A stretch of DNA of 64,000 bases from an uncultured Acidobacteriota bacterium (GTDB taxonomy: Bacteria > Acidobacteriota > Thermoanaerobaculia > UBA5066): NCBI GenBank assembly GCA_963779415.1, contig CAVZYA010000002.1, positions 608,001 through 672,000 on the forward strand. The letters are read 5' to 3'. A program made the position numbers and the translations under genes. Below are positions 15,506-64,000 of this stretch, piece after piece; positions within the stretch are counted from its first letter, which is position 1, and every line of letters starts with the position of its first letter. The notes under the pieces are model-generated. The model made no database searches, was not told the DNA's origin, and was given only the letters and a program-made list of their open reading frames with translations.

Positions 15506-16339
15506 ATGGTTCGAATGGTCGCCGCGCCCCCGGTCTACGACTCCGCCCGCCACGACCTCCGCTTCGTCGAGGAGGCGCGTGACCTCTGGCGCTACCGGCA
15601 CCTGGTGGTCGAGCTCGTCCGGCGCGACATCACCGTCCGCTACAAACGTTCCGTTCTCGGGGTCGGCTGGACCATGCTGAGCCCTCTCCTGCAGATGCTC
15701 ACGATGACCTGGGTCTTTTCGGTCGTCCTCCGGCAGGACATCCGGAACTATCCCGTCTACTTCCTTTCGGGCCTGATCTTCTGGCAGTTTTTCGCGCAGG
15801 CGACCGGCCACGTGGCCTCCCTGCCCGTCGAAGCCCTCGAGATGGGCAAACGGATCTTCCTGCCGCGGTCCGCCTTCGTGCTGGCGGCGGTGGGCGTGGC
15901 CCTCGTTCACATGGTCCTGAGCCTCGTTCCTCTTCTCGTCATCGTCATCTGGACGGGGTCACCCGTCCATCTGACCTGGCTTTTTCTCCCCGTGGCCCTT
16001 GTCATCGGCGCCGCCTTCACGACGGGCGTGGGACTGCTGGTCTTCACCCTCGCGTCCCGCTTCGTCGATGTGAAGGAGATGTACATCATCGTCCTTCAAC
16101 TCTGGTTCTTCGTGACGCCGATCGTCTACTCGCCGAAGCTCGTCCCGGAGAGGTACCAGTTCGTGATCCGGTACAACCCGGCCACGTACCTCGTCGATCT
16201 CTTCCGAGCGCCGCTTTACAACGGCTGGCTTCCCGGCGTAAACACGCTGGCGTTCGCCATCATCGCCTCGCTCGTGAGCCTTTTTCTGGGCTGGCTTTTC
16301 TACTCGCAGAAGATGGAGGAGTATGGATCGCGGTTCTGA
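15506..16339 (+). CDS. wzm: ABC-2 polysaccharide export permease
   Basis: LWRYRHLV..LVRRDITVRYKRSVLG..W..LSPL, FFVTPIVY, YNP, six TM. Confidence 0.92.
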   Translation: MVRMVAAPPVYDSARHDLRFVEEARDLWRYRHLVVELVRRDITVRYKRSVLGVGWTMLSPLLQMLTMTWVFSVVLRQDIRNYPVYFLSGLIFWQFFAQATGHVASLPVEALEMGKRIFLPRSAFVLAAVGVALVHMVLSLVPLLVIVIWTGSPVHLTWLFLPVALVIGAAFTTGVGLLVFTLASRFVDVKEMYIIVLQLWFFVTPIVYSPKLVPERYQFVIRYNPATYLVDLFRAPLYNGWLPGVNTLAFAIIASLVSLFLGWLFYSQKMEEYGSRF

Positions 16340-17075
16340 GCCCGTGATCGAACTGCACGACGTCGGCGTTCGCTATCGTGTACCCAAAGAGGCCATCGCG
16401 TCCCTGAAGGAGTACGCGATCCGGAAGCTCCAGGGCCGCATCGAGCACGGTGAGTTTCGAGCCCTTCGGGGAGTCAATCTGACGATACTTCCCGGCGAGC
16501 GCGTCGGCGTCGTCGGCCCGAACGGCGCCGGCAAGAGCTCGCTCTTCAAGGTGATCGCCCGGGTGCGTCGGCCGAGCGAGGGACGGGTCGTCGTCCGGGG
16601 CGCCGTGGCGCCTCTGCTGGAGCTGGGATTCGGATTCCACGGGGAGCTGACGGGCCGCGAAAACGTCGTGCTGCACGGCACGCTGATGGGGTTCTCGCGG
16701 CGGGAGATGCTGGAGAGAATGGACCGGATCGCCGAATTCGCGGAACTCGAGTCGTTCCTGGACACCCCCATCCGGAACTATTCGAGCGGCATGGTGGCCC
16801 GCCTCGGGTTCGCGGTCGCGACGGACGTGGATCCCGACATTCTCCTGGTCGACGAGGCGCTCGCCGTGGGCGACGAGAGATTCAAGGCGAAATGCCAGGA
16901 GCGGATGGCGTCCTTCCGGGAAACAGGCCGGACGTTTCTGGTCGTCTCCCACGCGCTCGCGGAGGTCCGGCGCGTCTGCAATCGAGCGGTCTGGATTCTG
17001 CAGGGCGAGGCCGTCATGGACGGCCCGGCCGGCGACGTCTGCGACGCTTACCACGAGTGGGCCCAGCGGGGATGA
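16323..17075 (+). CDS. wzt: Polysaccharide export ATPase without C-terminal carbohydrate-binding domain
   Basis: GPNGAGKS, LTGRENV, YSSGMVARLGFAVA, LLVDEALAVGD; only 250 aa. Confidence 0.92.
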   Translation: MDRGSEPVIELHDVGVRYRVPKEAIASLKEYAIRKLQGRIEHGEFRALRGVNLTILPGERVGVVGPNGAGKSSLFKVIARVRRPSEGRVVVRGAVAPLLELGFGFHGELTGRENVVLHGTLMGFSRREMLERMDRIAEFAELESFLDTPIRNYSSGMVARLGFAVATDVDPDILLVDEALAVGDERFKAKCQERMASFRETGRTFLVVSHALAEVRRVCNRAVWILQGEAVMDGPAGDVCDAYHEWAQRG

Positions 17076-18202
17076 CGGCGCGGCTCAAGGTTCTCGTCGT
17101 GGCCGGAACCCGCCCGGAGGCGATCAAGATGGCGCCGGTCGTCAGGCGGCTGCGCGCGGATACTTCCCGTTTCGACGTCACGTTCTGCGTCACCGCGCAG
17201 CACCGGGAGATGCTCGATCAGGTCGTGGCGCTGTTCGGTCTTCGGCCGGACGTGGATCTCGATCTGATGCGTCCGGACCAGTCCCTGAACGAGCTGTCGT
17301 CCCGTGTCTTCACGGCGATGGACGCCTGCCTGCTCGAGAACCGGCCCGACTGGGTTCTGGTGCAGGGAGACACGACGACGGCGCTCTGTACGGCCCTGGC
17401 CGCCTTCCACCGGCACCTCCGTGTCGGACACGTCGAGGCCGGGCTTCGAACGGGTGATCTCGACGCCCCGTTCCCGGAAGAACTGAATCGGCGGGTCGTC
17501 GACCTTCTTGCCACGGCGCTCTTCGCCCCGACGCCGCGTTCGGTGGAGGAGCTGGAGCGCGAGGGGGCCCGGAGATCGGCGATTCACCTGACGGGGAACA
17601 CGGTGGTCGACGCCCTCGAGGCCATCGTGGCCCAGGAGGGCGCTGTCGAGACGGAGAACGTCGTCCTGGTGACGGTGCATCGTCGCGAGAGCTTCGGCGC
17701 GCCGCTCGAAGAGGTCGTGGAGGCCATCGCCGCCCTGGCGCGTCTCTTCCCGGCCGTACGGTTCATCCACGTCGAGCATCCCAATCCGAACGTCCGGGAC
17801 ATCGTCCGGCGGAACGCCGGCATCGGCAACGTGCAGATCGTTCCGCCGACCGACTACCGCACTCTCGTCCGGCTGCTCCGGCGCTGCCGTCTCGTCCTGA
17901 CGGATTCCGGAGGAATCCAGGAAGAGGCGCCGACGTTCGGAAAGCCGGTCCTCGTCATGAGACAGAAGACGGAGCGTCGCGAGGGCATCGAGGCGGGGAG
18001 CGCCCGGCTCGTCGGGACCGACAAGGAGGTCATCGTGCGGGAGGTCTCGCGCCTTCTGAACGATCCGGCGGCCTATCGCGCGATGAGCGCCTGCGTGAAC
18101 CCGTACGGCGACGGCCGGGCCTCCGAGCGGATCGCGCGAATTCTGCTCGGCGAGGACTTCGAGCCATTTCGACCCCTCCCGCTCAGGGACGGTGGCGCGT
18201 GA
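17072..18202 (+). CDS. wecB: UDP-N-acetylglucosamine 2-epimerase (non-hydrolysing; WecB/MnaA)
   Basis: GTRPEAIKMAPV, QHREML, VQGDTTT, HVEAGLR, TDSGGIQEEAP, NPYGDG. Confidence 0.96.
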   Translation: MTARLKVLVVAGTRPEAIKMAPVVRRLRADTSRFDVTFCVTAQHREMLDQVVALFGLRPDVDLDLMRPDQSLNELSSRVFTAMDACLLENRPDWVLVQGDTTTALCTALAAFHRHLRVGHVEAGLRTGDLDAPFPEELNRRVVDLLATALFAPTPRSVEELEREGARRSAIHLTGNTVVDALEAIVAQEGAVETENVVLVTVHRRESFGAPLEEVVEAIAALARLFPAVRFIHVEHPNPNVRDIVRRNAGIGNVQIVPPTDYRTLVRLLRRCRLVLTDSGGIQEEAPTFGKPVLVMRQKTERREGIEAGSARLVGTDKEVIVREVSRLLNDPAAYRAMSACVNPYGDGRASERIARILLGEDFEPFRPLPLRDGGA

Positions 18203-19593
18203 CCGACGACGAGGGTGCGCTTCGACGCCGTCTCCGGCTTCTCGAGCAGAAGCTGGCAGCCCAGGGGGCCGACCTTCGATCGATGCAGTGGGAGCTGCAG
18301 AAGATGGCTCTCGCCGCCAAGAGAGGTCGGTGGGCGGAAACGGAAATGTCTCGAGTTTGGGCGTCGGCGTTCGGCCCGGCAGGCGCCGCCGGGTGGGTCA
18401 TGCGCCGGCTCGGGAGAACGTTGCAATACGAGGCCGAAAGACGATTCCGGCGAGTTCCCGGGGCCCTCCCCGGGCGGCCGGTACCGTCGACCCGGCCTGC
18501 GTCGGACGGGCCACGCCCCGACATCTTCTGCTTCCCCATCATCGACTGGCACTACCGTTACCAGAGACCGCAGCAGCTGATGAGCCGCCTCGGAAAGCGG
18601 GGCCGGCGCGTCTTCTGGGTCGCTCCGTGGTTTCGCGGTGCCGGCCCCCTCGTCGACGTCCAGCCGCTCGCCCCCGGCGTCTGGCAGCTCTCTCTGCGGG
18701 GGCCGGACATGGACCTCTACGGAGAGGCGCCCGCCGAGGCGGCCGTCGACGCGATCGTGAGCGGACTCATGGACCTGGCACGCCAGGTCGACGTCTCCCG
18801 GGCGATCCAGGTCGTCGAGCTTCCGTTCTGGTGGCCCGTCGCCCGACGCCTCCGGGAGCAGTCCGGCTGGTTTCTCGTTTACGACTGCATGGATGACCAC
18901 GCGGGATTCTCGTTTCACTCCGCGGACGCGACGGCGCTGGAAGCCGGGCTGATCCGGGGAGCCGACGTCGTCCTGGCCTCCTCGCGCCCGCTCCAGACGA
19001 AGATCGCCCGTTCGAACCGGGAAGCCATCCTCGTCCGCAACGCCTGTGACTACGAACACTTCGCGTCGGTCACCCGTCAAGGCTCGGACCGCCCCGTGAT
19101 CGGGTACTACGGCGCGATCGCGGACTGGTTCGATTCAGACCTCGTGGCGGACCTCGCCGAGCGCCAGCCGGGCTGGGACTTCTTCCTGGTCGGTTCGACC
19201 TTCGCGGCCGACGTCAGCCGGCTTCGGAACCTCCCGAACATCCGGCTCGTGGGAGAGCGGCCGTATGCCGAGCTTCCCCGATGGCTCTCGCGGTTCGACG
19301 TCGCCCTGCTTCCTTTCCGGCGGACACCGCTGACGGAAGCGACGAATCCGGTCAAGGCCTACGAGATCATGGCCGCGGGACTCCCGCTGGTCTCCGTTCC
19401 CCTCCCGGAGATCGTCGAGTTCGGCGACCTCGTCCGGCTGGCGTCCACGCCGGCGGAATTCGAGCGGCAGATCCAGGCAGAACTCGCGGATCGGGACGAG
19501 AATCTCGTGGAGAGAAGACGGGCGTTTGCACGGCAGCAGACGTGGGACGATCGTGTCCGGCTCCTCGACGACCTCCTCCCCCAGCATGTCTGA
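18199..19593 (+). CDS. GT4-family glycosyltransferase with N-terminal coiled coil
   Basis: IIDWHYRYQRPQQL, YDCMDDH, IGYYGAIADW, TNPVKAYEIMAAGLP. Confidence 0.88.
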   Translation: MTDDEGALRRRLRLLEQKLAAQGADLRSMQWELQKMALAAKRGRWAETEMSRVWASAFGPAGAAGWVMRRLGRTLQYEAERRFRRVPGALPGRPVPSTRPASDGPRPDIFCFPIIDWHYRYQRPQQLMSRLGKRGRRVFWVAPWFRGAGPLVDVQPLAPGVWQLSLRGPDMDLYGEAPAEAAVDAIVSGLMDLARQVDVSRAIQVVELPFWWPVARRLREQSGWFLVYDCMDDHAGFSFHSADATALEAGLIRGADVVLASSRPLQTKIARSNREAILVRNACDYEHFASVTRQGSDRPVIGYYGAIADWFDSDLVADLAERQPGWDFFLVGSTFAADVSRLRNLPNIRLVGERPYAELPRWLSRFDVALLPFRRTPLTEATNPVKAYEIMAAGLPLVSVPLPEIVEFGDLVRLASTPAEFERQIQAELADRDENLVERRRAFARQQTWDDRVRLLDDLLPQHV

Positions 19594-20275
19594 CGCACGG
19601 AACGGGGCCGCCCCGGCACGCAGGCTCGACCTCGGAGCGGGCCTCGTCTCGCTCCCGGGCTTCGTCGGCGTCGACCGCTTCTTCCTCCCCGGGGCGCGTG
19701 TCGTGCTGGACCTGGACGCGCCCCGCCTCCCGTTTCCGGACGACACGTTTGACCTCGTTCACGCCTTCCACTCCCTCGAGCATGTCGCGGATCTCGTGGC
19801 CACCATGCGGGAGGTCTGGCGCGTCGGAAAACCCGGTGCACAGGTCTGCATCACGGCGCCCTACTACACGATGGGCCTGAACCTCGCGAATCCTTACCAC
19901 AAGCAGGTCTTCAACGAGCACACGCCCCGGTTCTGGACCGCTTCGCCTACGACGCGGATCGACGCCGCGGAATGGCGCCAGCCGCCGCTGGGCGAGATCT
20001 GGGGCCTCGCGAGGAGCGACAACAGCGACCCCGGCTTCGACCTGCGCTGCATCCGGATGGAGTTCTTCTATCTCGAAGAGTACTGGGGGATCCCGCCGGA
20101 TGAGCAGCGGCGGGCCCGCCGTTGCCACCTGGATGTCTGCGAACAGATCCTCTATCACCTCATCGTGTTCAAGTGCCCCCTGACGGAGGCCGACCTGGCC
20201 CGCGAAGGTCGCGATCTCTACATGCCGCCGCAGCTCGACGCGCGTCGGAAGGCTGCGGCCTTGAGGAAGCCGTAG
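19586..20275 (+). CDS. Class I SAM-dependent methyltransferase
   Basis: LDLGAG motif I, LPFPDDTFD, HSLEHV, EVWRVGKPG. Confidence 0.85.
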   Translation: MSDARNGAAPARRLDLGAGLVSLPGFVGVDRFFLPGARVVLDLDAPRLPFPDDTFDLVHAFHSLEHVADLVATMREVWRVGKPGAQVCITAPYYTMGLNLANPYHKQVFNEHTPRFWTASPTTRIDAAEWRQPPLGEIWGLARSDNSDPGFDLRCIRMEFFYLEEYWGIPPDEQRRARRCHLDVCEQILYHLIVFKCPLTEADLAREGRDLYMPPQLDARRKAAALRKP

Positions 20276-20397
20276 GCTGGCTCATACGGACGCGGAGGCT
20301 GAGCCCCGGCGTGCCGGAGCGTGCCCGGAACTCGGACGCCGGCTCGACCGGATTCTTCAGAAGCGTCTCGGCGTCGAATCCGTCGTACAGGCGCGCG

Positions 20398-20550
20398 ATG
20401 CGCAAGGCGTTCGAGGAGATCCATCGGACAAACGCCTGGAACGACGGCGAATCGGTCTCCGGGCCGGGCTCGACACTGCTTCAGACGGAGACGATCCGTG
20501 AAGAGCTGCCTCGTTCACTTCTCGTACGGCGACATCTTCGCCACGCTGCA
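20398..20550 (+). pseudogene. Internally deleted methyltransferase remnant
   Basis: FEEIHRTNAWNDGESVSGPGSTL..T..IREELP N-terminus joined directly, in another frame, to a CLVHFSYGDI motif; the SAM-binding middle is missing. Confidence 0.55.
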
Positions 20551-20659
20551 CATCGCTCAGCGCCGACACGCCACGGGTTCACGGATGGCGGCCGCGACAG
20601 TAGCGCCGATGAACCCAGATCGTGTCGTACTGCTGACCGACGATCTTTCGGGTCACCCC

Positions 20660-20959
20660 GTGACGTCCCTTTCAGACCGTTCGCGAGGCCGCCGAGTCCC
20701 TCGAGCGCGTCGAGAGTGGCGCCCTCCACGTCAATCTTCAGGATGTCGATGCCTTCGGCGCCGATCCCTCCACGGCGACCGCGCGGGCGTTCGGAAAGAG
20801 ATGACGTAGCTCCAGCGTGTCGCCGCCATCCATCGCTCCGAGATCCATGACGACGTGAATCTCTTCGGGATGAACGGACCCGAAGACGACCTGGGAGAAC
20901 TCGGACATGGTGATCACGCCCGGGAGCTTCGACGTCGGAGCGGGGAGCCGTTGCGTCAT
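20660..20959 (-). pseudogene. Internally deleted FkbM-family methyltransferase remnant
   Basis: VMDLGAMDGGD...FPNARAVAVE followed at once, in another frame, by IDILKIDVEGATLDALEG. Confidence 0.6.
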
Positions 20960-20971
20960 CGTTCGGCGGCG

Positions 20972-22105
20972 TCAACTGTTCGTCAGCTCGCGTAGCGCCG
21001 AGGCGACCCGCCGAACGTCTTCCCGCGTCAGGCGCAGGTGCATCGGAAGCGAGATGACCCGCTCGCTGGCGCGCCGCGCCCTCGGGCAGGGGGCCTGGTC
21101 GTCCTGGTACATCCGGTAGAAGAGGTTGTCCCGGTAGTGAACTCCGGGGTAGATCTCGCGGGCGTTCAGGCCGAGCATGACCTCGTCGCGGCGCTCGACG
21201 AGGACCTGGAAGAGGTGCCGTGACGGAACGCACTCCGGCGCCACCGGGACGAGACGGACGCCGGGGATGCCGGCTAGGTCCTCCGCATACCACTCCGCGA
21301 TCCGGCGGCGGGCCACGTTGTCCTCTTCCAGATACTTCAATCCGACCAGACCGAGCGCGGCCATGACCGCGTTGCCGTGGTACTTGAACCCCACGTGCTC
21401 GACGTCGTAGAGCCACTTGTAGGAGCCGCTTTCGATCGTCCGGGTGAACGTGTCCTTGTTGATCCCGAGCCAGGTCCACTTTCGAACCTCGGCATCGAGG
21501 CTCGCGTCGGAGAAGCAGATCATTCCGGCGTCCGCTGTCGGAAGGTTCTTGACGGCCTGGAAGGAGAAGACGGCGACGTCGGAGTCCCAGCCGGCCTGCC
21601 GGCCCCGGAGGCGGGTTCCCGCCATGTGGGCGGCGTCGAGGACGAGCTTCAGGCCCGTCTCCCGGCACAGCTGCAGGACCTTTTCGTACTGGCCCGCGTT
21701 CCCGCCGAGCCCCACGAAACAGACGGCGCGCGTCCGGGGGCCGATCCTCCGGCGGACCGACTCGGGGTCGAGGCAGAGGAAGTCGTCCACGTCCGCGAAG
21801 ACCGGACGAAGCCGTTCGTAGAGAATTGCGTGGTTCGTGGAGACGAAGGTCAGGGGCGTGGTGATGACCTCGTCGCCGTCCCGCCAGCCGCCGGCCTCCT
21901 TCAGAAGCCGGAAGGCGAGGTGCAGGCCCGCCGTCGCCGAGTTGAGGAAGTGGGCGTGGGGAAGGCCCATCTGCTCCCGCCATGCCTTCTCGAACTCGAC
22001 CGTCTTGTACCCCAGACCGGTCCACCCTTTCTCGAGACAGTCGCGGATTTCGGCGAGACACTCCTCGACCCGGAACGTCGGAACGAAAAGATGAATCGGG
22101 TTCAT
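20972..22105 (-). CDS. DegT/DnrJ/EryC1/StrS PLP-dependent sugar aminotransferase
   Basis: NSATAGLHLA, GDEVITTPLTF, LDAAH, FSFQAVKNL, GFKY, SLPMH. Confidence 0.93.
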   Translation of the reverse strand: MNPIHLFVPTFRVEECLAEIRDCLEKGWTGLGYKTVEFEKAWREQMGLPHAHFLNSATAGLHLAFRLLKEAGGWRDGDEVITTPLTFVSTNHAILYERLRPVFADVDDFLCLDPESVRRRIGPRTRAVCFVGLGGNAGQYEKVLQLCRETGLKLVLDAAHMAGTRLRGRQAGWDSDVAVFSFQAVKNLPTADAGMICFSDASLDAEVRKWTWLGINKDTFTRTIESGSYKWLYDVEHVGFKYHGNAVMAALGLVGLKYLEEDNVARRRIAEWYAEDLAGIPGVRLVPVAPECVPSRHLFQVLVERRDEVMLGLNAREIYPGVHYRDNLFYRMYQDDQAPCPRARRASERVISLPMHLRLTREDVRRVASALRELTNS

Positions 22106-22623
22106 CGGCTGGTCCCCTCGAGATCCAGGATCAGGTAGACAAATCGACGCCCGCCCTCGTCCCGGATCTCGACCTGGCGGAAACCGAGGCGTCGGTGGAT
22201 GGCGAGCGAAGGCTCGTTCCCTTCCAGAACGACCGATCGAAGGCGGCGAATGCCGAGGTCGCGGGCATGGCCGAGGAGAAGCCGGAAGGCTTCGCCGCCA
22301 TAGCCCTGTCCCCGCTGCGCCGGCGCGATGACGAGGCGACCCCACTCCGCCTCGGCGGCGTCGGGTGAGAGATCGTAAAGGGAAACGGTTCCGACCGGGT
22401 GGCCTTTCACCTCGACCACGAACCATCGATCCCGGTTGTCCGGCCGGAAGTAGTCGTCGAGGCGCTCGAGGTGCTTCTCGAAGGGGACGACGGCCGTCGA
22501 GCGGAACATCGGACGGCTCTCCGGGTCCATCCGCCACGAATAGAGCGCCTCGGCGTCTTCGCGGCGGATCTCCCGAAGCGTCAAGGCGTCCGTGCCGACG
22601 CGACGCGCGCCGCCCTGGATCAC
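22102..22623 (-). CDS. GNAT N-acetyltransferase (PseH/RimJ-like)
   Basis: LREIRREDAE.LYSWR, EWGRLVI, QRGQGYG, N..SLAIHRRLGF; GTG overlaps upstream TGA. Confidence 0.85.
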   Translation of the reverse strand: MIQGGARRVGTDALTLREIRREDAEALYSWRMDPESRPMFRSTAVVPFEKHLERLDDYFRPDNRDRWFVVEVKGHPVGTVSLYDLSPDAAEAEWGRLVIAPAQRGQGYGGEAFRLLLGHARDLGIRRLRSVVLEGNEPSLAIHRRLGFRQVEIRDEGGRRFVYLILDLEGTSR

Positions 22624-23709: not shown

Positions 23710-24720
23710 TCAGTAGAGGAGGGGGATGTGGAAGGCGGTCACGAGGAAAGGCGCCATCTGCCAACGGGTGACGTTGCCTGCGGGGCAGTAGTTGCCGCCG
23801 CCACAGCCGGCGGTGACTCCTCCCGCATAGATGTAGTGGATGAACTTGCAGCCCGGGTCCGTCGGCGGGACGTCGCCGAAGAGGGAGTTGCCGCCCGAGG
23901 TGCAGTTGTAGGTGCCCACGCTCGGGACGGTCCCGCTGACGGGAACGGCCGCACCCGAGCCGGCCATGGCCGTAGCGAGGAAGACGGCCATCTGCCAGCG
24001 GTTGACGTTGCTGGCGGGACAGTAATTGCCGCCGCCGCAGCCCGTCGTGATCCCCTGGGCATAGATGTAATGGATGAACTTGCAGCCCGGGTCCGTCGGC
24101 GCAACGTCGCCGAAGAGGGAATGGCCGCCCGAGGTGCAATCGTAGGAGCCCACGCTCGGGACGGTCCCGCTCGTCGGCACGCTGCCGGTCGGGCCGACCA
24201 TGGCGGTGGCGAGGAAGACGGCCATCTGCCAGCGATTGACGTTGCCGGCGGAGCAGTAATTGCCTCCACCGCAGCCTGATGTGACTCCGTTGTGGAGGAG
24301 GGTTTCGACGAAGCGGTAGGCGCCGTCGGCGACGGGCACGTCTGTGAAGCTCATGCCGATGTGGAGCGTCCAGCCCTTCGTGCCACCCGTGCTGAGAGTC
24401 TCGAGGAAGGTGGCATCCCAGTGGGTGGCGGGGCGGGTTACGGGGTTAGAGACGGAGAGGCGATAGGAGGGCCCGCCGGCCGAGAAGCTGTCGGCGGTGG
24501 CTCCGGGGGCGATGGTCCCGTATCCGGCCGCCGTGTCGAGCAGGGTGTACGTCGCACCGGCAGGACCCGTGAAGGCGGAAGCCGTGCCTGTGAGGGCGAG
24601 CGGGGAGGAGCCGATGTTCTTCCAGGAGGGGTTTGCGAGAACCGTCTCGCCCGGCTCGAGAACGCCGTTGACGTTGGAGATCGTCGCGCCCGTGGCATGA
24701 GCGTCCTCGACGAGGCCGGC
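23710..24720 (-). repeat. Shared ~1 kb 3' cassette (EPGET domain + 3 SLH-like repeats), copy 1
   Basis: Near-identical DNA at 54370, 57287 and 61460 (e.g. cccgcatagatgtagtggatgaac). Confidence 0.9.
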
Positions 24721-44517: not shown

Positions 44518-44527
44518 GTGGCGGGCG

Positions 44528-46538: not shown

Positions 46539-46571
46539 TCTTCTTTCAGCGCGAGGGAGGCCGGGAGGCCG

Positions 46572-57286: not shown

Positions 57287-58300
57287 TCAGTAGAGAAGCG
57301 GGATCTGAAAAGCGGTGACGAGGAAGGGCGCCATCTGCCAGCGGGTGACGTCGCTTGCGGGGCAGTACTTGCCACCGCCACAGCCGGCGGTGACCCCTCC
57401 CGCATAGATGTAGTGGATGAACCTGCAGCCCGGGTCCGCCGGCGGGACGTCGCTGAAGAGGGAGTTGCCGCCCGAAGTACAGTCGTAGGTGCCCACACCC
57501 GGGACGGTACCGCTCGTCGGCACGGTGCCGGTCGGGCCGACCATGGCCGTGGCGAGAAAGACCGCCATCTGCCAGCGGCTGATGTTCGAGGCCGGGCAGT
57601 AGTTCCCGCCACCGCATCCGGCGGTGATTCCTGCCGCATAGATGTAGTGGATGAACTTGCAGCCCCCGTCCGTCGGCGGGATGTCGGCGAAGAGGGAGTT
57701 GCCGCCGGAGGTGCAGTTGTACGTGCCCACGCCCGGGACGATCCCGCTCGTCGGCACGGTGCCGGTCGGGCCGACCATGGCCGTGGCGAGGAAGACGGCC
57801 ATCTGCCAGCGGGTGACGTCGCTGGCGGGGCAGTAGTTGCCGCCGCCGCAGCCGGCGGTGATCAGGTTGTGGAGAAGGGTCTCGACGAAGCGGTAGGCGC
57901 CGTCGGAGACGGGCATGTCGGAAAAGCTCCGGCCGACGTGGAGCGTCCAGGTCTTGGGGAGGCCGATGCTGAGGGTCTCGAGAAAGGTGGCGTCCCAGTG
58001 GGCGGCGGGGCGGGTCGCCGGATTGGAGACGGAGAGTCGGTAAGAGGCCACCCCGACCGACCAGCTGTCGGCCGTGGCGCCGGGAGCGATGGTCCCGTAG
58101 TCGGCGGCGGAGTCGAGAAGGGAGTAGGTGGCGCCGGCCGGCCCGGTGAAGGCGGAGGCCGTTCCGGTGAGAGCCAGCGGCGACGCCCCGGTGTTCTTCC
58201 AGGAGGCGTTGACGAGGACCGTCTCACCCGGCTCGAGGATGCCGTTGACGTTCGAGCTCGTTCCGCCCGTGGCATGGGCATCCTCGACGACGCCGGTGGG
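57287..58300 (-). repeat. Shared 3' cassette, copy 3
   Basis: Aligns with the other three cassettes. Confidence 0.9.
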
Positions 58301-61249
58301 CTGGACGTCCACGATCGGGACGGATGCGTTGGCCGTCGGCGAGGTGCAGCCTCCCGCGTTCGTCTCGGTCACGGTGAGGGACACGGTGCCTGAGCTTCCG
58401 GCAGTGAAGGTGATCTGGTTCGTCGTACCGCCGGACGTGATCGAGCCGTTGGTGATCCCCCAGCTGTAACTGCTCCCGGCATGGAGCGGGACGCTCGCGA
58501 CGAGTCCCGTTGCCTCGGGGAACGCAAAGGCCGGCGCCGTGATGACGGGAAGGCCCGGCACGGTGCTGACGAGGACGACCGTTTGCCCGGCGGCCGAGGT
58601 GCAGCCGGCGGCGGTCACCGTGACGCTGTAGGTTCCGGAGGCTGCTGCTGTCGCACCGGGGATCGTCGGGTTCTGCAGCGCCGATGCGAAGCCGTTGGGA
58701 CCCGACCACGCATAGGTGGCACCGGCCACCGTCGGTGTCGAGAGCGAAACCGTATCCCCGACGCAGTAGGGCCCCCCGTTGAACGCGGTGGGGGTCCACG
58801 AGCACGAGTACGTGTACGCCGACGGCAGGCTTCCCGTCTGAAGGTCGGGGTTCGTCACGGCCACGGTCACGGCCCCGGCCGCGTGGACGGGGGTGAGGGC
58901 GTGAACCGTCGTCTCCGAGACGTAGGTGATCCCGATGGCCGAGGTACCGCCGAAGGTCACCGCGGCGCCCGGCTGGAACTGGGTCCCGGAGACCGTCACG
59001 ACGGTCCCGCCCGAGACGGGTCCGTTCGCAGGAGAGACTCCCGTCACCGTCGGCGAAGGTCCCGGGCCCGGCGTCAGACGAAAGACGACCCCGCCGGCAC
59101 GAGCCCCGGCCGAATAGGTCGTCCCGTAAGAGTTCCCGTCGGATCCCTGCACGAGGTCGGCTCGCGGATCTGCTCCGTCGCTTCCCGACAGGGAGTGGAG
59201 CGTCGTCAGCGCCCCGGCCGGCGTGATCTTGAAGATCGTGCCGTATCCCTTCGTGCCACCCGAGGACGTCGTCCCATAGAACCTGCCGTCGGTTTCCTGG
59301 ACGAGACCGGCGTAGGGATACGCCCCGTCGCTGTACGCGAACGAGTGGAGCGTCGTCAGCGCCCCGGCCGACGTGATCTTGAAGATCGTGCCGTAGCCGT
59401 CCGTGCCGCCCAGGGACGTCGTCCCGTAGAAATTGCCGTCGGTCCCCTGCCTGACACCGGCCTGCGGATTCGCCCCGTCGCTTCCGGCGAAGGAGTGGAG
59501 CGTCGTGAGCGCTCCTGCCGGCGTGACCTTGAAGACCGTGCCGTAGCCGCCCGAGCCGCCCGCGTACGTCGTCCCGTAGAAGTTGCCGTCGATTGCCTGC
59601 ACGAGGCCGGCATAAGGATTCGCCCCGTCGCTCCCCGCGAACGAGTAGAGCGTCGTCAGCGTTCCTGCGGGCGTGATCTTGAAGACCGTGCCGTTTCCGC
59701 CCGAGCCGCCCGAGGACGTCGTCCCATAGAAGTTGCCGTCGGTTGCCTTCACGAGGCTGGCTCGCGGATTTGTCCCGTCACTCCCCAAAAAGGAGTGGAG
59801 CGTCGTCAGCGTCCCCGTTGGGGTGATCCTGAAGATCGTTCCAGAGTCAACAGTGCCCCCGTAGTACGTCGTCCCATAGAAGTTGCCGTCGGTTCCCTGT
59901 AGGAGGCCGGAGTACGGATTATCCCCGTCACCCCCCGCGAAAGAGTAGAGCGTTGTCAGCACCCCCGCCGGCGTGATCTTGAAGACCGTGCCGTAGTTTC
60001 CCGGGTTTCCCTGACGCGTCGTCCCGTAGAAGTTTCCGTCGGTTCCCTGCACGAGGGTGCCGAGCGGAAGTGCCGCTTCGCTGCGTGTGAACGGGTAGAG
60101 CGTCGTGAGCGCCCCCGCCGACGTGATCCTGAAGATGGTGCCGACACCGCCTGAACCTCCGTTGTACGTGGTCCCGTAGAAATTCCCGTCGGTTCCCTGC
60201 GCGAGGCTGGCGTACGGAGCAGCCCCATCGCCCCAGACGAACGAGTGGAGCGTCGTGAGCGTCCCGGCAAGCGTGATCTTGAACGCCGTGCCGTATCCGG
60301 CGGCTCCACCGTGAGACGTCGTCCCGTACAGGTTGCTGTCGGCTCCCCGCACGAGGCCGGCGTAGGGAGCTGCCCCGTCGCTTCCCGCGAAGGTGTAGAG
60401 CGTCGTCAGCGCCCCGCCCGGCGTGATCATGAAGACCGTGCCGTTCCCGCTCGTGCCGCCCGAGGATGCCGTCCCGTAGAAGTTCCCGTCGATTCCCTGC
60501 GCGAGGCCGGCCAGCGGATTCGTTCCTTCGCTCGCCGTAAGAGAGTGGAGCGTCGTCAGCGCCCCCGCCGGCGTGATCTGAAAAGCCGTTCCGTTTCCGC
60601 TCGTGCCGCCCAGGTACGTCGTCCCGTAGAAGTTTCCGTCGCTTCCCTTCACGAGGCCGGCGTACGGAGCCGCCCCGTCGCTCCCCGCGAACGAGTAGAG
60701 CGTCGTCAGGGCCCCCGCCGGCGTGACCCTGAAAACCGTGCCGGAACTTGCCGTGCCGCCCGCATAGGTCGTCCCGTAGAAGTTCCCGTCGGATCCCTGC
60801 ACAAGGCCGCCCTGAGGATTCGCCCCGTCGCTTCCCGCGAAGGAGTAAAGCGTCGTCAGCACCCCGGCCGTCGTAACCTTGAAAACCGTACCGCTTCCGC
60901 TCGCGCCTCCCTGAGACGTCGTCCCGTAGAGGTTCCCGTCGGTTCCCTGCACGAGCGCCGCCTGGGGAGAGCTTCCATCGCTCCCCGCGAAGGAGTAGAG
61001 GGTCGTGAGCACCCCTGCGGACGTGATGCGGTAGACGCTGCCCTGACTGTTCGTCCCGCCCTGGCTCGTCGTACCGTAGAAGTTCCCGTCACCGGCCTGG
61101 ACCAGCCCTGCCGGATACGGCTGCCCGAACGCGAAGGTATGGAGGACCGTGTAGGTCTGCGCCGCGGCCGGGGCCGCAGCGATCAGGATGGCGGAGGCGA
61201 CGGCGATCAGAACGACGTGACCGCACGCGGAGACTCTTTCGACGCGCAT
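57287..61249 (-). CDS. Secreted tandem-repeat (GloVer/TIGR03803-like) protein + IPT + Ig-like + EPGET + SLH-like repeats
   Basis: GAGGGG SD, signal peptide, 14 x LVQG.DGNFYGTT..GG....GTVFKITP.G.LTTL.SF. Confidence 0.9.
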   Translation of the reverse strand: MRVERVSACGHVVLIAVASAILIAAAPAAAQTYTVLHTFAFGQPYPAGLVQAGDGNFYGTTSQGGTNSQGSVYRITSAGVLTTLYSFAGSDGSSPQAALVQGTDGNLYGTTSQGGASGSGTVFKVTTAGVLTTLYSFAGSDGANPQGGLVQGSDGNFYGTTYAGGTASSGTVFRVTPAGALTTLYSFAGSDGAAPYAGLVKGSDGNFYGTTYLGGTSGNGTAFQITPAGALTTLHSLTASEGTNPLAGLAQGIDGNFYGTASSGGTSGNGTVFMITPGGALTTLYTFAGSDGAAPYAGLVRGADSNLYGTTSHGGAAGYGTAFKITLAGTLTTLHSFVWGDGAAPYASLAQGTDGNFYGTTYNGGSGGVGTIFRITSAGALTTLYPFTRSEAALPLGTLVQGTDGNFYGTTRQGNPGNYGTVFKITPAGVLTTLYSFAGGDGDNPYSGLLQGTDGNFYGTTYYGGTVDSGTIFRITPTGTLTTLHSFLGSDGTNPRASLVKATDGNFYGTTSSGGSGGNGTVFKITPAGTLTTLYSFAGSDGANPYAGLVQAIDGNFYGTTYAGGSGGYGTVFKVTPAGALTTLHSFAGSDGANPQAGVRQGTDGNFYGTTSLGGTDGYGTIFKITSAGALTTLHSFAYSDGAYPYAGLVQETDGRFYGTTSSGGTKGYGTIFKITPAGALTTLHSLSGSDGADPRADLVQGSDGNSYGTTYSAGARAGGVVFRLTPGPGPSPTVTGVSPANGPVSGGTVVTVSGTQFQPGAAVTFGGTSAIGITYVSETTVHALTPVHAAGAVTVAVTNPDLQTGSLPSAYTYSCSWTPTAFNGGPYCVGDTVSLSTPTVAGATYAWSGPNGFASALQNPTIPGATAAASGTYSVTVTAAGCTSAAGQTVVLVSTVPGLPVITAPAFAFPEATGLVASVPLHAGSSYSWGITNGSITSGGTTNQITFTAGSSGTVSLTVTETNAGGCTSPTANASVPIVDVQPTGVVEDAHATGGTSSNVNGILEPGETVLVNASWKNTGASPLALTGTASAFTGPAGATYSLLDSAADYGTIAPGATADSWSVGVASYRLSVSNPATRPAAHWDATFLETLSIGLPKTWTLHVGRSFSDMPVSDGAYRFVETLLHNLITAGCGGGNYCPASDVTRWQMAVFLATAMVGPTGTVPTSGIVPGVGTYNCTSGGNSLFADIPPTDGGCKFIHYIYAAGITAGCGGGNYCPASNISRWQMAVFLATAMVGPTGTVPTSGTVPGVGTYDCTSGGNSLFSDVPPADPGCRFIHYIYAGGVTAGCGGGKYCPASDVTRWQMAPFLVTAFQIPLLY
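59080..61150 (-). repeat. Intragenic tandem repeat, 14 units of 150 bp (50 aa)
   Basis: gtcccgtaga-like word recurs every 150 bp from 59121 to 61071. Confidence 0.92.
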
Positions 61250-61459
61250 GTTTGCCCCTCTCACTGTCCTCGTGCCTTGACCGGCCGGTCCGTAAGAAGC
61301 CCGTTTCACGGGCCGAAGCGGCAGAGCGGAACCGCTTGGTTTCTGACGACCATCAGGCACTCAGTCCGCGAACTCGTCCAGGATTCTCCTTGATGAGGAG
61401 TGACGCCGGAGAGAGGCCATCTTACGCTGGAGACTCCGTGCGGCCGCCCGTTCAGGTGC

Positions 61460-62470
61460 TCAGTAGAGGAGCGGGATGTCGAATGCGGTGACGAGGAAGG
61501 GAGCCATCTGCCACCGGGTGACGTTGCTTGCGGGGCAGTACTTGCCGCCGCCACAGCCGGCGGTGACCCCTCCCGCATAGATGTAGTGGATGAACTTGCA
61601 GCCCCCGTCCGTCGGCGGGACGTCGCTGAAGAGGGAGTTGCCCCCCGAGGTGCAGTTGTAGGTGCCCACACCCGGGACGGTACCGCTCGTCGGCACGGTG
61701 CCGCTCGGACCGACCATGGCGGCCGCGAGGAAGACGGCCATCTGGTTCCGCGTGACGTTCGACGCCGGGCAGTAGTTGCCGCCGCCGCAGCCGGCGGTGA
61801 TCGCCTGGGCGTAGATGTAGTGGATGGAAGGGCAGGCGCCGTTGGTGGGCGCCACGTCTCCGAAGAGCGAGTTGCCGCCGCTGGCGCAGTCATAGGGTCC
61901 GACACCGGAAACGGTGCCCGACGCAGGAACCGGCACTCCAGGCCCGAGCAGGGACGTGGCGAGGAAGACGGCCATCTGCCAGCGGGTGACGTTGCTGGCG
62001 GGGCAGTAAATGCCGACGCCGCAGCCGGCGGTGATGCCGTTGTGGAGGAGGGTCTCGGCGAAGCGGTAGGCGCCGTCGGAGACGGGGACGTCGGTGAAGC
62101 TCTTGCCAATGTGGAGCGTCCAGCTCTTCGCGATACCGTTGCTGAGCGTCTCGAGGAAGGTGGCGTCCCAGTGAGTGGCGGGGCGGGAGACCGGGTTGGA
62201 GACGGAGAGGCGATAGGACGGCCCGCCGGCCGAGAAGCTGTCGGCGGTGGCTCCGGGGGCGATGGTGCCGTAGTCCGCCGACGAGTCGAGCAGGGAATAG
62301 GTCGCCCCGGCGAGACCCGCAAAGCCCGAAGCCGTGCCCGTGAGGGCGAGCGGGGAAGCACTGATGTTCTTCCAGGAAGGGTTGACGAGAACCGTCTCGC
62401 CCGGCTCGAGGATCGTGTTGACGTTCGAGACCGTGCCGATCGTGGCATGGGCATCTTCGACGAGGCCGGC
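61460..62470 (-). repeat. Shared 3' cassette, copy 4
   Basis: Aligns with the other three cassettes. Confidence 0.9.
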
Positions 62471-64000
62471 GGGCTCGCCGCTTATGTAGACGTTGACGAT
62501 CGTGGTCGGAGAGGCGCAGCCCGTGGCGGTCGTCGTCTCCACGACGGACAGGACGGTGGATCCCGAGGTTCCCGCCGTGAAGGTGATCTGGTTCGTCGTG
62601 GTGCCGGAGGTGATCGTCCCGTTGGTGATGCCCCAGCTGTAACCGTCTCCGGCGTGGGGCAGAACGCTCGCCACGAGTCCCGTCGCTCCCGGCAGGGCCG
62701 AAGCCGGGGCCGTGATGTACGGGTTGGGAACCGGATTGACGGTGACGGACGTCGTGCCGGGGGAAGAGGCGGTGCACCCGGGGACTGTCACGATGACGCT
62801 GTAGGTCCCGGCGTTCGCCGCGGTGGCGTTCGGGATGGTCGGGTTCTGGACGGCAGAGGCGAAGCCGTTCGGACCGGTCCATGCGTACGTCGCGCCGGAG
62901 ACCGTGGGCGTCGAGAGCGAAATGGTCGCGCCGGCGCAGTAGGGCCCGGTGTTGCCGGCCGTGGGCGTGGCGGTGGTGCAGAAGAAGTTGTATCCGCCGA
63001 CGAGCGTGTAGCCCTGATTTCCCGGATTGATCACCGTGACGTCTGCCGCGCCCGAGGCGTGGGCGGGCGTCGCGGCCGTGATCGTCGTGGCGTTCACCCT
63101 GACGACCGAGGTCGCGCTTGCGCCGCCGATCTTCACCGCGACTCCGCTGGCGAAGTTCGAGCCGCTGATCGTGACGGCGGTCCCGCCGAGGGGGGTACCC
63201 GACGGCGGCGAGATCCCCGTCACCACCGGGCCGGGCACCGTTCCGAAGCAGGACGACTGGCCTTCGACGAAGCTCCGGATCGTCGTCTTCACGACCTGGC
63301 TCGGTTCGCCCGTCACGCCGAGATACATCTTGATGGCGCTGTATCCGCCGATCAGGTGGCAGTAGCTCATGACCGTCCCCTTCTCCGGGGGGACGCTCGT
63401 CGGTCCGGAGTAGCAGCCCGCCTCGCCCGCGTAGCACTTGTCGACGGGCGGGCTGTAGCAGTGGGTATGCACCGATCCGAAGTTGTGCCCCAGCTCGTGC
63501 GTGACGGCGAAGAAGTCCCAGTAGGTCGTCGAGATGTTCGGGGGAGAGACGCCGCTCAGGTTCCCGGTGACTCCGTATGAGAACCAACTGCAGAGCGAAT
63601 CGAGATATGCGATCCCTCCGCCCAGTCCCCGTCCGGACAGCATGTGTGCCGTCGTACGTGGTACGGCGGTCCGGTTCGCATTCCAGTAGGTGACGAACTC
63701 GGACAGGGCACCCGACGAATTCGTGGCCGTCCACGGGTCGTCCGACGTCGTCCAGATGGAGAGATAGTTGACCTGTTGCGTGACGAGAACGTCGCGCTGG
63801 TAGACCGCAGAGATGGCGGCGAAGAGGTCGCCGACATAACTCGTGAGATTCGGGACCGAGTTGAACTTCGCATAGAGCTCGTGGTCGGTCTCGATGGCGA
63901 TCCCCGCGTAGTACATGACGCTGCTCAGAGGAGCTGTCGGAGATTTCGGGACCAGCGCCTCCGGGGGAACCGGCAAAGCGTCCGCATCGCAACGAAAGAG
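61460..64000 (-). CDS. Secreted M12B/reprolysin-like zinc metalloprotease + IPT + Ig-like + EPGET + SLH-like repeats (5' truncated by window)
   Basis: [11 protein letters not shown] zinc motif, Met-turn TVMSY, GGGIAY; shared C-terminal cassette. Confidence 0.9.

Follow-up and report, generated by a model that had tools for sequence, protein, structure and literature searches.

The 64-kb stretch of DNA analysed here (the window) holds the gene set of Gram-positive pyruvylated-polymer display in an LPS-making acidobacterium without the usual wall-fixing enzyme, and raises the question of whether proteins are displayed here in the same way; the anchoring may differ. On balance, the evidence pointed to a working system by which an LPS-type diderm of Acidobacteriota displays SLH proteins on a pyruvylated glycan.

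The host genome (G000) was placed in Acidobacteriota, nearest Thermoanaerobaculia. Genome-wide, its envelope genes included LpxC, LptD, Omp85/BamA and 9 OmpA-family matches. The OmpA-family proteins are of the Gracilicutes kind, unlike OmpM/SlpA-type diderm Terrabacteria, and OmpA/Pal-type tethers are already in the genome. No WaaL-like gene was found in the 64-kb window, and six Wzy_C matches lay elsewhere in the genome. The features of the window were as follows, Pfam calls being scores above the gathering score:

4441-5331 (-), lpxC, marking a lipid A/LPS producer (Pfam LpxC 300.5 bits)
15506-16339 (+), Wzm, ABC-2 permease of a glycan exporter (Pfam ABC2_membrane 59.5 bits; best NCBIfam match the galactan export permease Wzm/RfbD, below the model cut-off)
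16323-17075 (+), Wzt, ABC ATPase of 250 aa (Pfam ABC_tran; best NCBIfam matches TagH and Wzt/RfbE, both below cut-offs)
17066-18202 (+), WecB/MnaA, non-hydrolysing UDP-GlcNAc 2-epimerase (Epimerase_2 359.6 bits, in an ORF of 16892-18202, with the gene start placed at 17066; TIGR00236 wecB 423.7 bits, cut-off 210.15)
18199-19593 (+), GT4-type glycosyltransferase, TuaH-like (Glyco_trans_1_4, Glyco_trans_1_2; TuaH 81.9 bits, below cut-off)
19526-20275 (+), SAM methyltransferase (Methyltransf_11)
20972-22117 (-), DegT-family sugar aminotransferase (DegT_DnrJ_EryC1 263.8 bits; PseC/ArnB likeness below cut-offs)
22102-22626 (-), GNAT N-acetyltransferase, PseH-like (Acetyltransf_3 82.2 bits; PseH 48.3 bits, below cut-off)
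22620-23627 (-), glycosyltransferase (Glyco_trans_1_2 79.5 bits)
23710-26850 (-), SLH protein A, ~1000 aa, signal peptide, C-terminal triple SLH of the Cys variant (SLH 42.6 bits)
28425-33759 (+), SLH protein B, signal peptide at 28425, CarboxypepD_reg, DUF4394/DUF6923, C-terminal triple SLH (SRAE/NRAQ/TRAQ)
33795-37616 (+), a single gene of ~3.8 kb encoding a CsaB-type pyruvyltransferase, a long helix, a GT4-like domain and a GT2
37690-38883 (+), FAD/NAD-binding oxidoreductase (NAD_binding_8, Amino_oxidase), with weak UDP-galactopyranose mutase likeness (TIGR00031 26 bits, far below cut-off)
38837-41195 (+), GT2 domain and LA_3751/3752-like membrane glycosyltransferase, frame break near 39541
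41205-43764 (+), YfhO-like (GT-C) membrane glycosyltransferase (YfhO C-terminal match), frame break near 42094
43717-45060 (-), GT2, polyprenyl-phosphate sugar synthase-like (Glycos_transf_2 62.3 bits; AglJ/ArnC/PpgS likeness below cut-offs)
45165-46538 (+), 457-aa hydrophobic protein whose sequence suggests several membrane spans; no Pfam or NCBIfam match
46592-48989 (-), YfhO-like membrane protein (YfhO 22.2 bits, below cut-off), frame breaks near 46882 and 47248
48943-51340 (-), YfhO-like (GT-C) membrane glycosyltransferase (YfhO 76 bits), gene end taken from the frame track
51336-52043 (-), lipoprotein with TIG domains (TIG 44.8 bits), lipobox-like N-terminus
52040-54277 (-), Sulfatase/alkaline-phosphatase superfamily protein (Sulfatase 113.9 bits), lipoprotein-like signal at the N-terminus
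54370-57132 (-), SLH protein C, signal peptide, subtilase S8, TIG, triple SLH (Peptidase_S8 129.4 bits, SLH 57 bits)
57287-61360 (-), SLH protein D, TIG/PKD adhesin-like protein of 1357 aa, triple SLH; module modelled
61460-64000 (-), SLH protein E, reprolysin-like M12B metalloprotease, TIG, triple SLH

Pfam SLH was found in five of the eight large proteins scanned, with E-values of 4e-9 to 1.6e-15, in the ORFs 23710-26850 (-), 31618-33759 (+), 54370-57132 (-), 57287-61360 (-) and 61460-63976 (-). All five C-terminal modules consisted of three repeats, just as a sequence-only reading of this DNA had described for five large secreted proteins. The cargo of these signal-peptide proteins comprised two proteases, one DUF4394 protein and two adhesin-like proteins, and the signal peptides were only of Sec type. 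SLH protein B probably starts at 28425, at its signal peptide; in the assembly a stop at 29766-29768 interrupts it, and the frame changes near 31207 and again near 31567. The gene of SLH protein E continues past the window to 64471, where its signal peptide lies. A further five tandem genes, 3-8 kb past the window end, encoded small proteins with one C-terminal SLH each, and the whole genome had 22 SLH matches.

The triple SLH module is predicted to take the SLH trimer fold. The AF2 model of the protein D module had a pLDDT of 96.6 and a pTM of 0.90, and all listed Foldseek matches at E <= 0.001 were Sap or SpaA SLH trimers; the best was 3pyw (E 8.6e-8, TM 0.81 on the target), and the first match other than Sap/SpaA had an E-value of 1.2. 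The SLH trimer of protein B aligned with Bacillus anthracis Sap over three repeats (6bt4, E 1.3e-6; 3pyw, E 2.1e-6). The fold prediction, which the earlier reading had proposed as a check, thus came out in its favour. SLH-Arg43 and SLH-Gly29, given as pyruvate-contacting residues in an excerpt of PMC6081394, were kept in 15 of 15 repeats. The likeness to B. anthracis Sap and Paenibacillus alvei SpaA/SlhA therefore covers the triple SLH, the predicted three-pronged spindle fold and both residues. The repeats here differ from those of B. anthracis and P. alvei in a Cys loop (GCGGGNYCP), in TRWQ in place of TRAE, and in SLH-Trp13, which, read by eye, was not conserved in those parts of the Cys-variant repeats that aligned with Sap.

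The PS_pyruv_trans match lay at ~33942-34845 (+), with profile positions 1-223 and 230-280 in two frames, and TIGR03609 scored 142 + 54 bits over the two frames. The CsaB-like gene that had been proposed at 33891-35050 thus does contain the pyruvyltransferase domain; however, it is not a stand-alone gene but the N-terminal part, in two frames, of the ~3.8-kb fusion. SLH protein B stands directly upstream of csaB, as had been observed, since it stops at 33759 and csaB starts at ~33795. In the intact ortholog of the same-genus assembly G004, the CsaB domain scored 194-199 bits with TIGR03609, below the equivalog cut-off of 213.1. The order in Thermoanaerobaculia short-read MAGs was PS_pyruv_trans, GT2, GT4 and methyltransferase in a single open frame of 1584 or 1546 aa, the methyltransferase being fused to the CsaB enzyme in L017 and L015; among relatives the modules were variably fused or split. 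The glycosyltransferase at 18199-19593 shared 36% identity with the glycosyltransferase part of the fusion protein in G004. AF2 modelling showed a helix of 86 residues (391-476) after the CsaB domain, nine-tenths of it in blocks with a mean pLDDT of 93-98. The terminator-ruler-polymerases WbbB and WbdD, which serve ABC-exported O antigens, are laid out in this way.

Matches to Pfam Epimerase_2, ABC2_membrane, ABC_tran and LpxC and to NCBIfam wecB bore out that WecB/MnaA, Wzm/Wzt and lpxC occur together with the SLH genes, so that the expected ManNAc supply and ABC exporter are in the locus. Judged by its family, WecB/MnaA would be the source of UDP-ManNAc, and the GT2 at 43717-45060 probably makes the donor that the GT-C enzymes use. 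Wzt has no C-terminal carbohydrate-binding module (CBM), because 250 aa leave no space for one.

Co-occurrence was analysed in 31 genomes (the host and 30 relatives) and in a phylum sample of 251 genomes. TIGR03609 scores in the 31 genomes formed two groups, 11 genomes with at least 196 bits (frames summed) and the rest with at most 74; SLH was present in 11/11 of the CsaB-like-positive genomes and in 2/20 of the others. A CsaB-like match (E <= 1e-30) was found in 15 of the 251 phylum-sample genomes, four of these 15 being without SLH, and seven of the eight genomes with at least three SLH matches were CsaB-positive. TPR proteins with one SLH occurred in 58 of the 236 CsaB-negative genomes; therefore, there is no general link between SLH and CsaB within Acidobacteriota, and in this phylum only the multi-SLH display modules are linked to it. 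The co-occurrence expected by the sequence-only reading held for multi-SLH proteins but not for single SLH on TPR proteins. An ORF with the SLH variant of this locus lay within 10 kb of csaB in 22/33 acidobacterial and 13/19 chloroflexotal named loci.

The csaB fusion contained three frame breaks, all +1, at ~34641, ~36233 and ~36458; together with the breaks in SLH protein B and the GT-C genes, and with no same-strain reads covering the csaB sites, they could mean that this strain carries csaB and several glycan genes as true pseudogenes and has lost its display system. However, GC3 in csaB followed frames 3>1>2>3 and was coding-like in each shifted frame, and the G004 ortholog was uninterrupted across all three sites, although G004 was broken in other genes. 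Frameshift-like junctions numbered 685 genome-wide (14-19.5 per 100 kb), and the 9 in the window equalled the genome average, a density ~7 times that of 16 short-read acidobacterial loci (2.1 per 100 kb). Other long-read MAGs had rpoB in 4-5 pieces. Short-read contigs, from relatives and not from the same strain, had exactly one base fewer at each site; the contigs came from two studies for the first site and from one for the others. The three breaks are most likely assembly errors, and a decayed system is very improbable.

Two other explanations were considered. The genes might be chance neighbours, with Wzm/Wzt-WecB making an ordinary O antigen, the CsaB fusion making another glycan and SLH binding something else: the Wzm/Wzt block stands ~10 kb and several genes away from csaB, only 5/33 acidobacterial loci had Wzm and Wzt within 10 kb of csaB, and the single-SLH TPR proteins indicate that SLH can work here without CsaB. 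This was considered improbable, since multi-SLH genes closely track CsaB, the glycan genes of the window have SLH genes to either side, the fused csaB is flanked by Wzm and Wzt in 11/19 Chloroflexota loci, and coiled-coil terminators/rulers are described as a hallmark of ABC-exported glycans in an excerpt of PMC11231755. Somewhat less improbable, but still unlikely, is a periplasmic version as in Thermus and cyanobacteria, in which an unrecognised ligase joins the pyruvylated polymer to peptidoglycan and the SLH proteins lie under the outer membrane. It would agree with an excerpt of the preprint 10.1101/2021.05.31.446380, in which all SLH/CsaB systems characterised in diderms attach to modified peptidoglycan or to a polymer linked to the wall, with the Sec-type signal peptides, and with the Cys pairs of the modules, which fit any location outside the cytoplasm. 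Against it, the LCP ligase was found in 0/31 genomes of the host and relatives, in 0/5 named acidobacteria with an SLH/CsaB system and in 0/15 CsaB-positive phylum-sample genomes (3/251 of that sample had LCP, none CsaB-positive), whereas it was present in 4/4 SLH-positive control genomes and 5/5 Chloroflexota with the same system. With its subtilase, reprolysin-like protease and TIG/PKD arrays, the cargo also looks extracellular, and the OmpA/Pal-type tethers are already there. Because no LCP ligase was found, a polymer that is not wall-linked, and is possibly O-antigen-like, is plausible; this negative result lends indirect support to the earlier suggestion of an 'O-antigen-like or lipid-linked' glycan. 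We infer the location of the SLH proteins (surface or periplasm), as well as the ligand, its pyruvylation and its anchor. The observation made in the sequence-only reading was confirmed, and its interpretation as a whole was partly supported.

In the favoured display system, WecB would supply UDP-ManNAc, and cytoplasmic GT modules would build the glycan polymer on undecaprenyl phosphate. The long helix would be a ruler holding the N-terminal CsaB domain away from the polymerase, as in WbbB and WbdD, and the CsaB domain would cap the non-reducing end with ketal-pyruvate when the chain is long enough. The chain would be exported by Wzm/Wzt, and periplasmic decoration by GT-C (YfhO-like) enzymes may occur. 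Since no LCP ligase was found, a Gram-positive type of linkage to peptidoglycan is improbable, and the chain would more likely be placed on lipid A-core or kept on a lipid. The C-terminal SLH modules would dock the proteases, the DUF4394 protein, the adhesin-like proteins and the small SLH proteins on the pyruvate cap. In B. anthracis, pyruvylation is on the terminal repeat only, according to an excerpt of PMC6801904.

Like the SLH/CsaB anchoring of B. anthracis and P. alvei, the locus has a CsaB-like pyruvyltransferase, a UDP-GlcNAc 2-epimerase and SLH genes adjoining csaB. It differs in that the host is an LPS diderm of Acidobacteriota in which no LCP ligase was found, and in that one fusion joins CsaB with a ruler-like helix and with glycosyltransferases, whereas their CsaB is a stand-alone protein of ~370 aa. 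In Caulobacter, RsaA and similar S-layers are bound to LPS O antigen, RsaA having a non-SLH N-terminal domain and type I secretion. A possible analogous end state here is a classical outer membrane whose O-antigen-like glycan binds surface proteins non-covalently, the LPS linkage of the glycan being putative. The OmpM/SlpA systems (Thermus, Deinococcus, cyanobacteria, Negativicutes) are likewise diderms with both SLH and CsaB; however, OmpM/SlpA carries a single N-terminal SLH on a beta-barrel porin as a periplasmic outer-membrane tether, whereas here SLH is C-terminal on enzymes and adhesin-like proteins. The sequence-only reading had given the Gram-positive SLH/CsaB background but omitted the diderm cases, and it overstated the novelty, because diderms that anchor proteins by SLH/CsaB (Thermus, cyanobacteria, OmpM systems) are already known from an excerpt of the preprint 10.1101/2021.05.31.446380, which also calls CsaB/SLH 'practically absent in the Gracilicutes'.

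WbbB (Klebsiella O12), ORF6 (O7) and WbdD/WbdA (E. coli O9a) share with this locus an N-terminal end-modifying enzyme, a long helix, C-terminal GT modules and Wzm/Wzt in the locus. The terminator here is a CsaB-type pyruvyltransferase; in WbbB/ORF6/WbdD it is a Kdo transferase or a methyltransferase-kinase. In further contrast to those systems, Wzt here has no CBM to read a terminal cap, so that termination and export may be uncoupled as they are in Klebsiella O1, and the coiled-coil state of the modelled helix is putative. Pyruvate as a chain terminator with chain-length control has been proposed, but not validated, for Burkholderia and Pseudomonas in an excerpt of PMC10629545; in Klebsiella O1, chain length is not set by pyruvate, according to the excerpt of PMC11231755.

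The window (64 kb, about 68% G+C) belongs to contig 2 of genome G000 (4.36 Mb, three contigs, 92% complete). When compared with named genomes, the RpoB core of G000 showed 77% identity to two Thermoanaerobaculia MAGs, 76% to an Acidobacteriota MAG, 71% to Bryobacterales and Terriglobia, 62-66% to an Anaerolineae genome, and 58% to a Planctomycetota genome. LptD was encoded, and four Omp85 and nine OmpA-family matches were obtained; judged from its sequence, G000 is an LPS-type diderm of Acidobacteriota. Profile scans with Pfam and NCBIfam gave the following locus map.

4441-5331: lpxC
15506-23627: glycan block with Wzm, Wzt, WecB, a GT4, a methyltransferase, a DegT aminotransferase, a GNAT acetyltransferase, and a further glycosyltransferase
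15506-17075: Wzm/Wzt exporter within this block
23710-26850 (-): SLH protein A
28425-33759 (+): SLH protein B, directly before the pyruvyltransferase gene
33795-37616 (+): csaB fusion (CsaB-type pyruvyltransferase, long helix, glycosyltransferases)
then a run of membrane glycosyltransferases: three YfhO-like, one LA_3751-like, and a GT2 resembling polyprenyl-phosphate sugar synthases
then two lipoproteins
54370-57132 (-): SLH protein C (subtilase)
57287-61360 (-): SLH protein D (TIG/PKD)
61460-64471 (-): SLH protein E (reprolysin-like)

WecB matched TIGR00236 at 423.7 bits (cut-off 210), and the pyruvyltransferase locus was the only one in G000. The genes at 26918-27970, 45165-46538, 46546-47169, and 14164-15312 had no Pfam or NCBIfam match; the first (+) and the last (-) encode signal-peptide proteins flanking the glycan and SLH genes. 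A sulfatase-domain protein was considered as an LtaS-like synthase and rejected, its signal being of the lipoprotein type and a multi-span membrane domain being absent.

In G000, positions 1-223 of the PS_pyruv_trans profile matched in one frame and positions 230-280 in another, and a single extra base was located at each of about 34641, 36233, and 36458. Across csaB, GC3 tracked frames 3, 1, 2, and 3 with values of 0.84-0.92 in each, and this continuity therefore defined the csaB gene as 33795-37616. The ortholog in G004, a genome of the same genus, was 86% identical over the CsaB domain and formed one open frame, uninterrupted across the three break sites, that contained CsaB, the helical stretch, and the GT domains. 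Frame changes were counted by tblastn, by GC3 per frame, and by an HMM that tracked the reading frame and was run on short-read loci as a control; the G000-G004 nucleotide alignment, being unreliable in the repetitive SLH-protein genes, was set aside for these counts.

The HMM detected about 685 frameshift-like junctions in G000 (C1-C3; 14-19.5 per 100 kb), a density about seven times the short-read baseline of 2.1 per 100 kb measured in 16 short-read acidobacterial loci (286 kb); the corresponding values were 9.5 per 100 kb for 13 loci of long-read MAGs and 35 for the locus of G004. That the three csaB breaks are probably not real is suggested by several comparisons: orthologs of three neighbouring genes intact in G000 are broken in G004, the nine junctions in the window equal the genome average, rpoB is split into four to five pieces in other long-read MAGs, and the short-read contigs of relatives (90-95% identical) have exactly one base fewer at all three break sites (contigs from two studies for the first site, from one study for the second and third). 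Each sequencing run found contained at most 9% of the sampled words, and the contigs of run X1 identical to the window all lay away from the frameshift sites. Since no same-strain read covers these sites, true decay of csaB in G000 keeps a small probability. The junctions make many G000 genes look split, and the completeness figure of 92% was probably lowered thereby.

The PS_pyruv_trans domain (PF04230) scored 86.3 and 46.3 bits in the two frames of G000 (cut-off 25.3) and 137.3 bits over profile positions 1-280 in the G004 ortholog. CsaB was by far the best model for the G000 enzyme (WcaK, 60 bits), with TIGR03609 scoring 142 and 54 bits on the two sides of the frame break. The equivalog cut-off of TIGR03609 (213.1) was reached neither by G000 nor by the intact G004 ortholog (193.9-198.8 bits); it was passed by three of the 31 genomes in the relatives set (G000 and 30 relatives), at 218.6-229 bits. 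A Foldseek search with the model of the CsaB domain and helix returned only generic GT-B folds, e.g., UDP-GlcNAc 2-epimerases and GT4 enzymes; these matches to a predicted structure fit a pyruvyltransferase and are non-discriminating.

SLH domains (Pfam PF00395; PROSITE PS51272) were found above the Pfam gathering score in five of the eight large window proteins scanned, at 36.8-57.2 bits (cut-off 20.8), and signal peptides were readable at the N-termini of the SLH proteins. Genome-wide, G000 had 22 SLH matches. Just past the window end, five small SLH proteins scored 24-46.5 bits against the same cut-off and were the strongest SLH matches in G000. They are encoded by five tandem paralogous genes (L003:3812-9038, 3-8 kb past the window end), have 260-305 aa, and each consist of a signal peptide, an uncharacterised N-terminal domain, and one C-terminal Cys-variant SLH (TRGQ); such single-SLH proteins might trimerise into one SLH spindle. 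The SLH module was C-terminal in all 10 proteins in and beside the window, unlike that of OmpM-type porin tethers, in which an N-terminal SLH is followed by a beta-barrel.

The SLH module of protein B aligned with Bacillus anthracis Sap across all three repeats (E 1.3e-6). Modules A, C, D, and E shared 75-82% identity among themselves and represented a variant characterised by the loop sequence GCGGGNYCP and by TRWQ where TRAE is expected. The AF2 model of module D, built from 34 aligned sequences, had a pLDDT of 96.6 and a pTM of 0.90. When it was searched against the PDB with Foldseek, the matches listed at E ≤ 0.001 were all Sap or SpaA SLH trimers, with 3pyw, 6bt4, and 6cw*/7sv* entries at the top (TM 0.72-0.82 on the target), and several of the matched trimers hold pyruvylated ManNAc; no other fold was matched below E 1, the next other match having E 1.2. 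The three-repeat module is predicted to adopt the three-pronged spindle trimer fold. The CsaB-like pyruvyltransferase domain and the SLH-like C-terminal repeats of five large proteins, both proposed in the sequence-only reading, were confirmed by profile matches above cut-off, the former though split over two frames, and the SLH fold assumed there was recovered for module D in the AF2 and Foldseek predictions.

The accessible text of Blackler et al. (PMC6081394) names SLH-Arg43, SLH-Gly29, and SLH-Trp13 as ligand-contact residues. SLH-Arg43 (TRAE motif) was present in all 15 repeats, as TRWQ, NRWQ, SRWQ, TRNQ, SRAE, NRAQ, or TRAQ, and SLH-Gly29 (GIIxG) was represented by the Gly before the Cys loop in 15 of 15. 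The stacking residue SLH-Trp13 was absent, by eye, from the Cys variant where it was aligned with Sap; in protein D, the third repeat has Pro/Gly at this position, and only a nearby Tyr was seen in first repeats. In metagenomes, the Cys-variant module was frequent (718 cluster representatives matched at E ≤ 1e-30, and 16,313 when the limit was E ≤ 0.001), and its usual position was C-terminal.

TIGR03609 scores were bimodal in the relatives set, with nine genomes at 199-229 bits, G000 and G025 at about 196 and 201 bits with two frames summed, and the rest at or below 74 bits. SLH was found in 11 of 11 CsaB-like genomes vs. two of the 20 others (G006, four matches; G013, one match). Of 251 genomes sampled evenly across the phylum, 15 had a CsaB-like match (E ≤ 1e-30) and 69 had SLH. 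Here SLH occurred in 11 of 15 CsaB-positive genomes (all but G077, G085, G103, and G240) vs. 58 of 236 CsaB-negative ones, and seven of the eight genomes with at least three SLH matches were CsaB-positive. Most of the 58 CsaB-negative SLH genomes had a single match, located in a 450-540-aa frame; the two such genes examined, L093:1394-2401(-) and L095:1409-2401(-), encode a TPR protein with one SLH, the ligand of which cannot be a CsaB product in these genomes. The sequence-only reading was to be refuted if the module were common in relatives lacking the pyruvyltransferase; it withstood this test for the multi-SLH display modules and would not withstand it for the SLH domain as such.

About 6% of the genomes sampled across Acidobacteriota, and a third of those of the window's order, had the SLH/CsaB system. 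An ORF encoding the Cys-variant SLH was located at most 10 kb from the fused csaB in 22 of the 33 acidobacterial loci and in 13 of the 19 from Chloroflexota. Two genomes of the same order, G021 and G025, had 90 and 137 SLH matches, a scale like that of SLH-rich Firmicutes; both contained a CsaB-like gene and neither had an LCP match.

The architecture of csaB was surveyed in 80 named loci. The open frame, measured stop-to-stop and therefore an upper bound, was at least 560 aa in 31 of 33 Acidobacteriota, 19 of 19 Chloroflexota, and four of four Acidimicrobiia loci, and 315-489 aa in 19 Bacillota and two cyanobacterial-type loci. In the csaB tree (FastTree only, midpoint root), the stand-alone and fused clades were split with full local support, and Acidobacteriota and Chloroflexota were interleaved in the fused clade; this supported clade of CsaB-helix-GT proteins was common to Acidobacteriota, Chloroflexota, Acidimicrobiia, and a few Planctomycetota. 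Two short-read Thermoanaerobaculia MAGs (L017 and L015) had a single frame of 1584 or 1546 aa with PS_pyruv_trans, GT2, GT4, and methyltransferase domains, and the domain order of the fusion was seen in G000, G004, G003 (also of the same genus), L017, and L015. In the AF2 model of residues 1-612 (pLDDT 89.2), the CsaB domain was followed by an 86-residue helix at 391-476, nine-tenths of which lay within blocks of mean pLDDT 93-98; past the helix came short helices with the motif SRLW..LYWR (L017) or SRLF..LYWR (G000), and then the next domain. A complex prediction that paired the helical region of L017 (residues 355-560) with itself scored 0.20 against a mark of 0.32, which speaks neither for nor against an oligomer.

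As described in the available part of one source (PMC11231755), WbbB, Klebsiella O7 ORF6, and WbdD have an N-terminal terminator and polymerising GT modules at opposite ends of a coiled-coil ruler, a layout belonging to ABC-transporter-dependent pathways. The csaB fusion is like WbdD/WbbB in having an end-modifying domain, a long predicted helix, and GT modules in the same order, and, as in those pathways, a Wzm/Wzt exporter lies in its locus. Wzm together with Wzt lay no more than 10 kb from the fused csaB in five of the 33 loci from Acidobacteriota and in 11 of the 19 from Chloroflexota. In Pfam and NCBIfam scans, the window Wzt (250 aa) had only the ABC_tran domain and no CBM for a terminal cap. 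According to the accessible sections of the respective sources, pyruvate has been suggested, though not proven biochemically, to act as a length-controlling chain terminator in Burkholderia and Pseudomonas (PMC10629545), the chain length of Klebsiella O1 is not set by terminal pyruvate (PMC11231755), and the terminal repeat alone is pyruvylated in the B. anthracis secondary cell wall polymer (SCWP) (PMC6801904). In view of the pyruvate-cap precedents, including the terminal repeat of the B. anthracis SCWP, a terminal cap as the SLH ligand fits known chemistry.

SLH/CsaB anchoring is regarded as a trait of Terrabacteria and as tied to wall-linked polymers; SCWP and teichoic acids are attached to peptidoglycan by the LytR-CpsA-Psr (LCP) family (PF03816). 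A six-frame PF03816 search of G000 (92% complete) gave no match, and none was obtained in the 31 genomes of the relatives set or in five named acidobacterial genomes with the system. Three CsaB-negative genomes were the only ones with an LCP match among the 251 in the phylum sample; the family was present in each of the four SLH-positive controls and in all five Chloroflexota genomes with a fused csaB (3-5 copies each). The O-antigen ligase/polymerase family Wzy_C had six matches in G000, none within the window. The absence of LCP makes the canonical wall linkage of the polymer in G000 unlikely, and by the same absence a lipid A-core or other lipid anchor would be the simplest alternative.

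It is possible, though we consider it rather doubtful, that in this acidobacterial lineage the SLH/CsaB system known from Terrabacteria has been transferred to a classical LPS envelope. The ruler-coupled CsaB would put pyruvate on an ABC-exported, O-antigen-like chain, the capped chain would be ligated to lipid A-core and not to peptidoglycan, and secreted proteases, adhesins, and small SLH proteins would dock on the pyruvate tips beyond the outer membrane. If true, the system would be the first to display SLH proteins on LPS, and its pyruvate chain terminator the first to be controlled by a ruler.

Among diderms, SLH/CsaB is an established feature of Terrabacteria. The accessible text of Witwinowski et al. 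(10.1101/2021.05.31.446380) calls SLH/CsaB practically absent from Gracilicutes. Literature searches for S-layer homology in Acidobacteriota found no report, and supplementary tables of the cited surveys may list acidobacterial CsaB/SLH cases; searches for acidobacteria with SLH and pyruvyl found nothing beyond a general review, and those for pyruvyltransferase with coiled-coil and ABC transporter found no CsaB fusion described in the portions of text available. The main interest lies in the LCP ligase not being found together with possible SLH display on an LPS-type surface. The acidobacterial system combines large SLH gene sets, with up to 137 matches in one relative, with the lack of an LCP ligase, raising the questions of how a pyruvylated polymer is held in a classical Gram-negative envelope and whether LPS can support SLH display. 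With the fused CsaB-helix-GT enzymes, pyruvate would join the known chain terminators working with a molecular ruler, and the compact SLH module could become a display tag, provided that its ligand is confirmed.

Within the genus of G000, the CsaB domains of L010 (the G004 locus) and L011 (the G003 locus) were only about 40% identical and fell in different subclades, which suggests locus replacement as at O-antigen loci. G004 lacked the gene for SLH protein A, and its YfhO-like region was present in a second copy. In the window, a histidine kinase at 1645-4441(-), with HAMP and HisKA, no HATPase_c match, and frame changes at about 1654, 1912, and 3823, adjoins a sigma-54 response regulator at 248-1699. 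SmpB was located at 7082-7807, and two MacB/FtsX-type permeases with a divergent ABC ATPase at 10235-14156 could be a LolCDE-like or MacB-like system.
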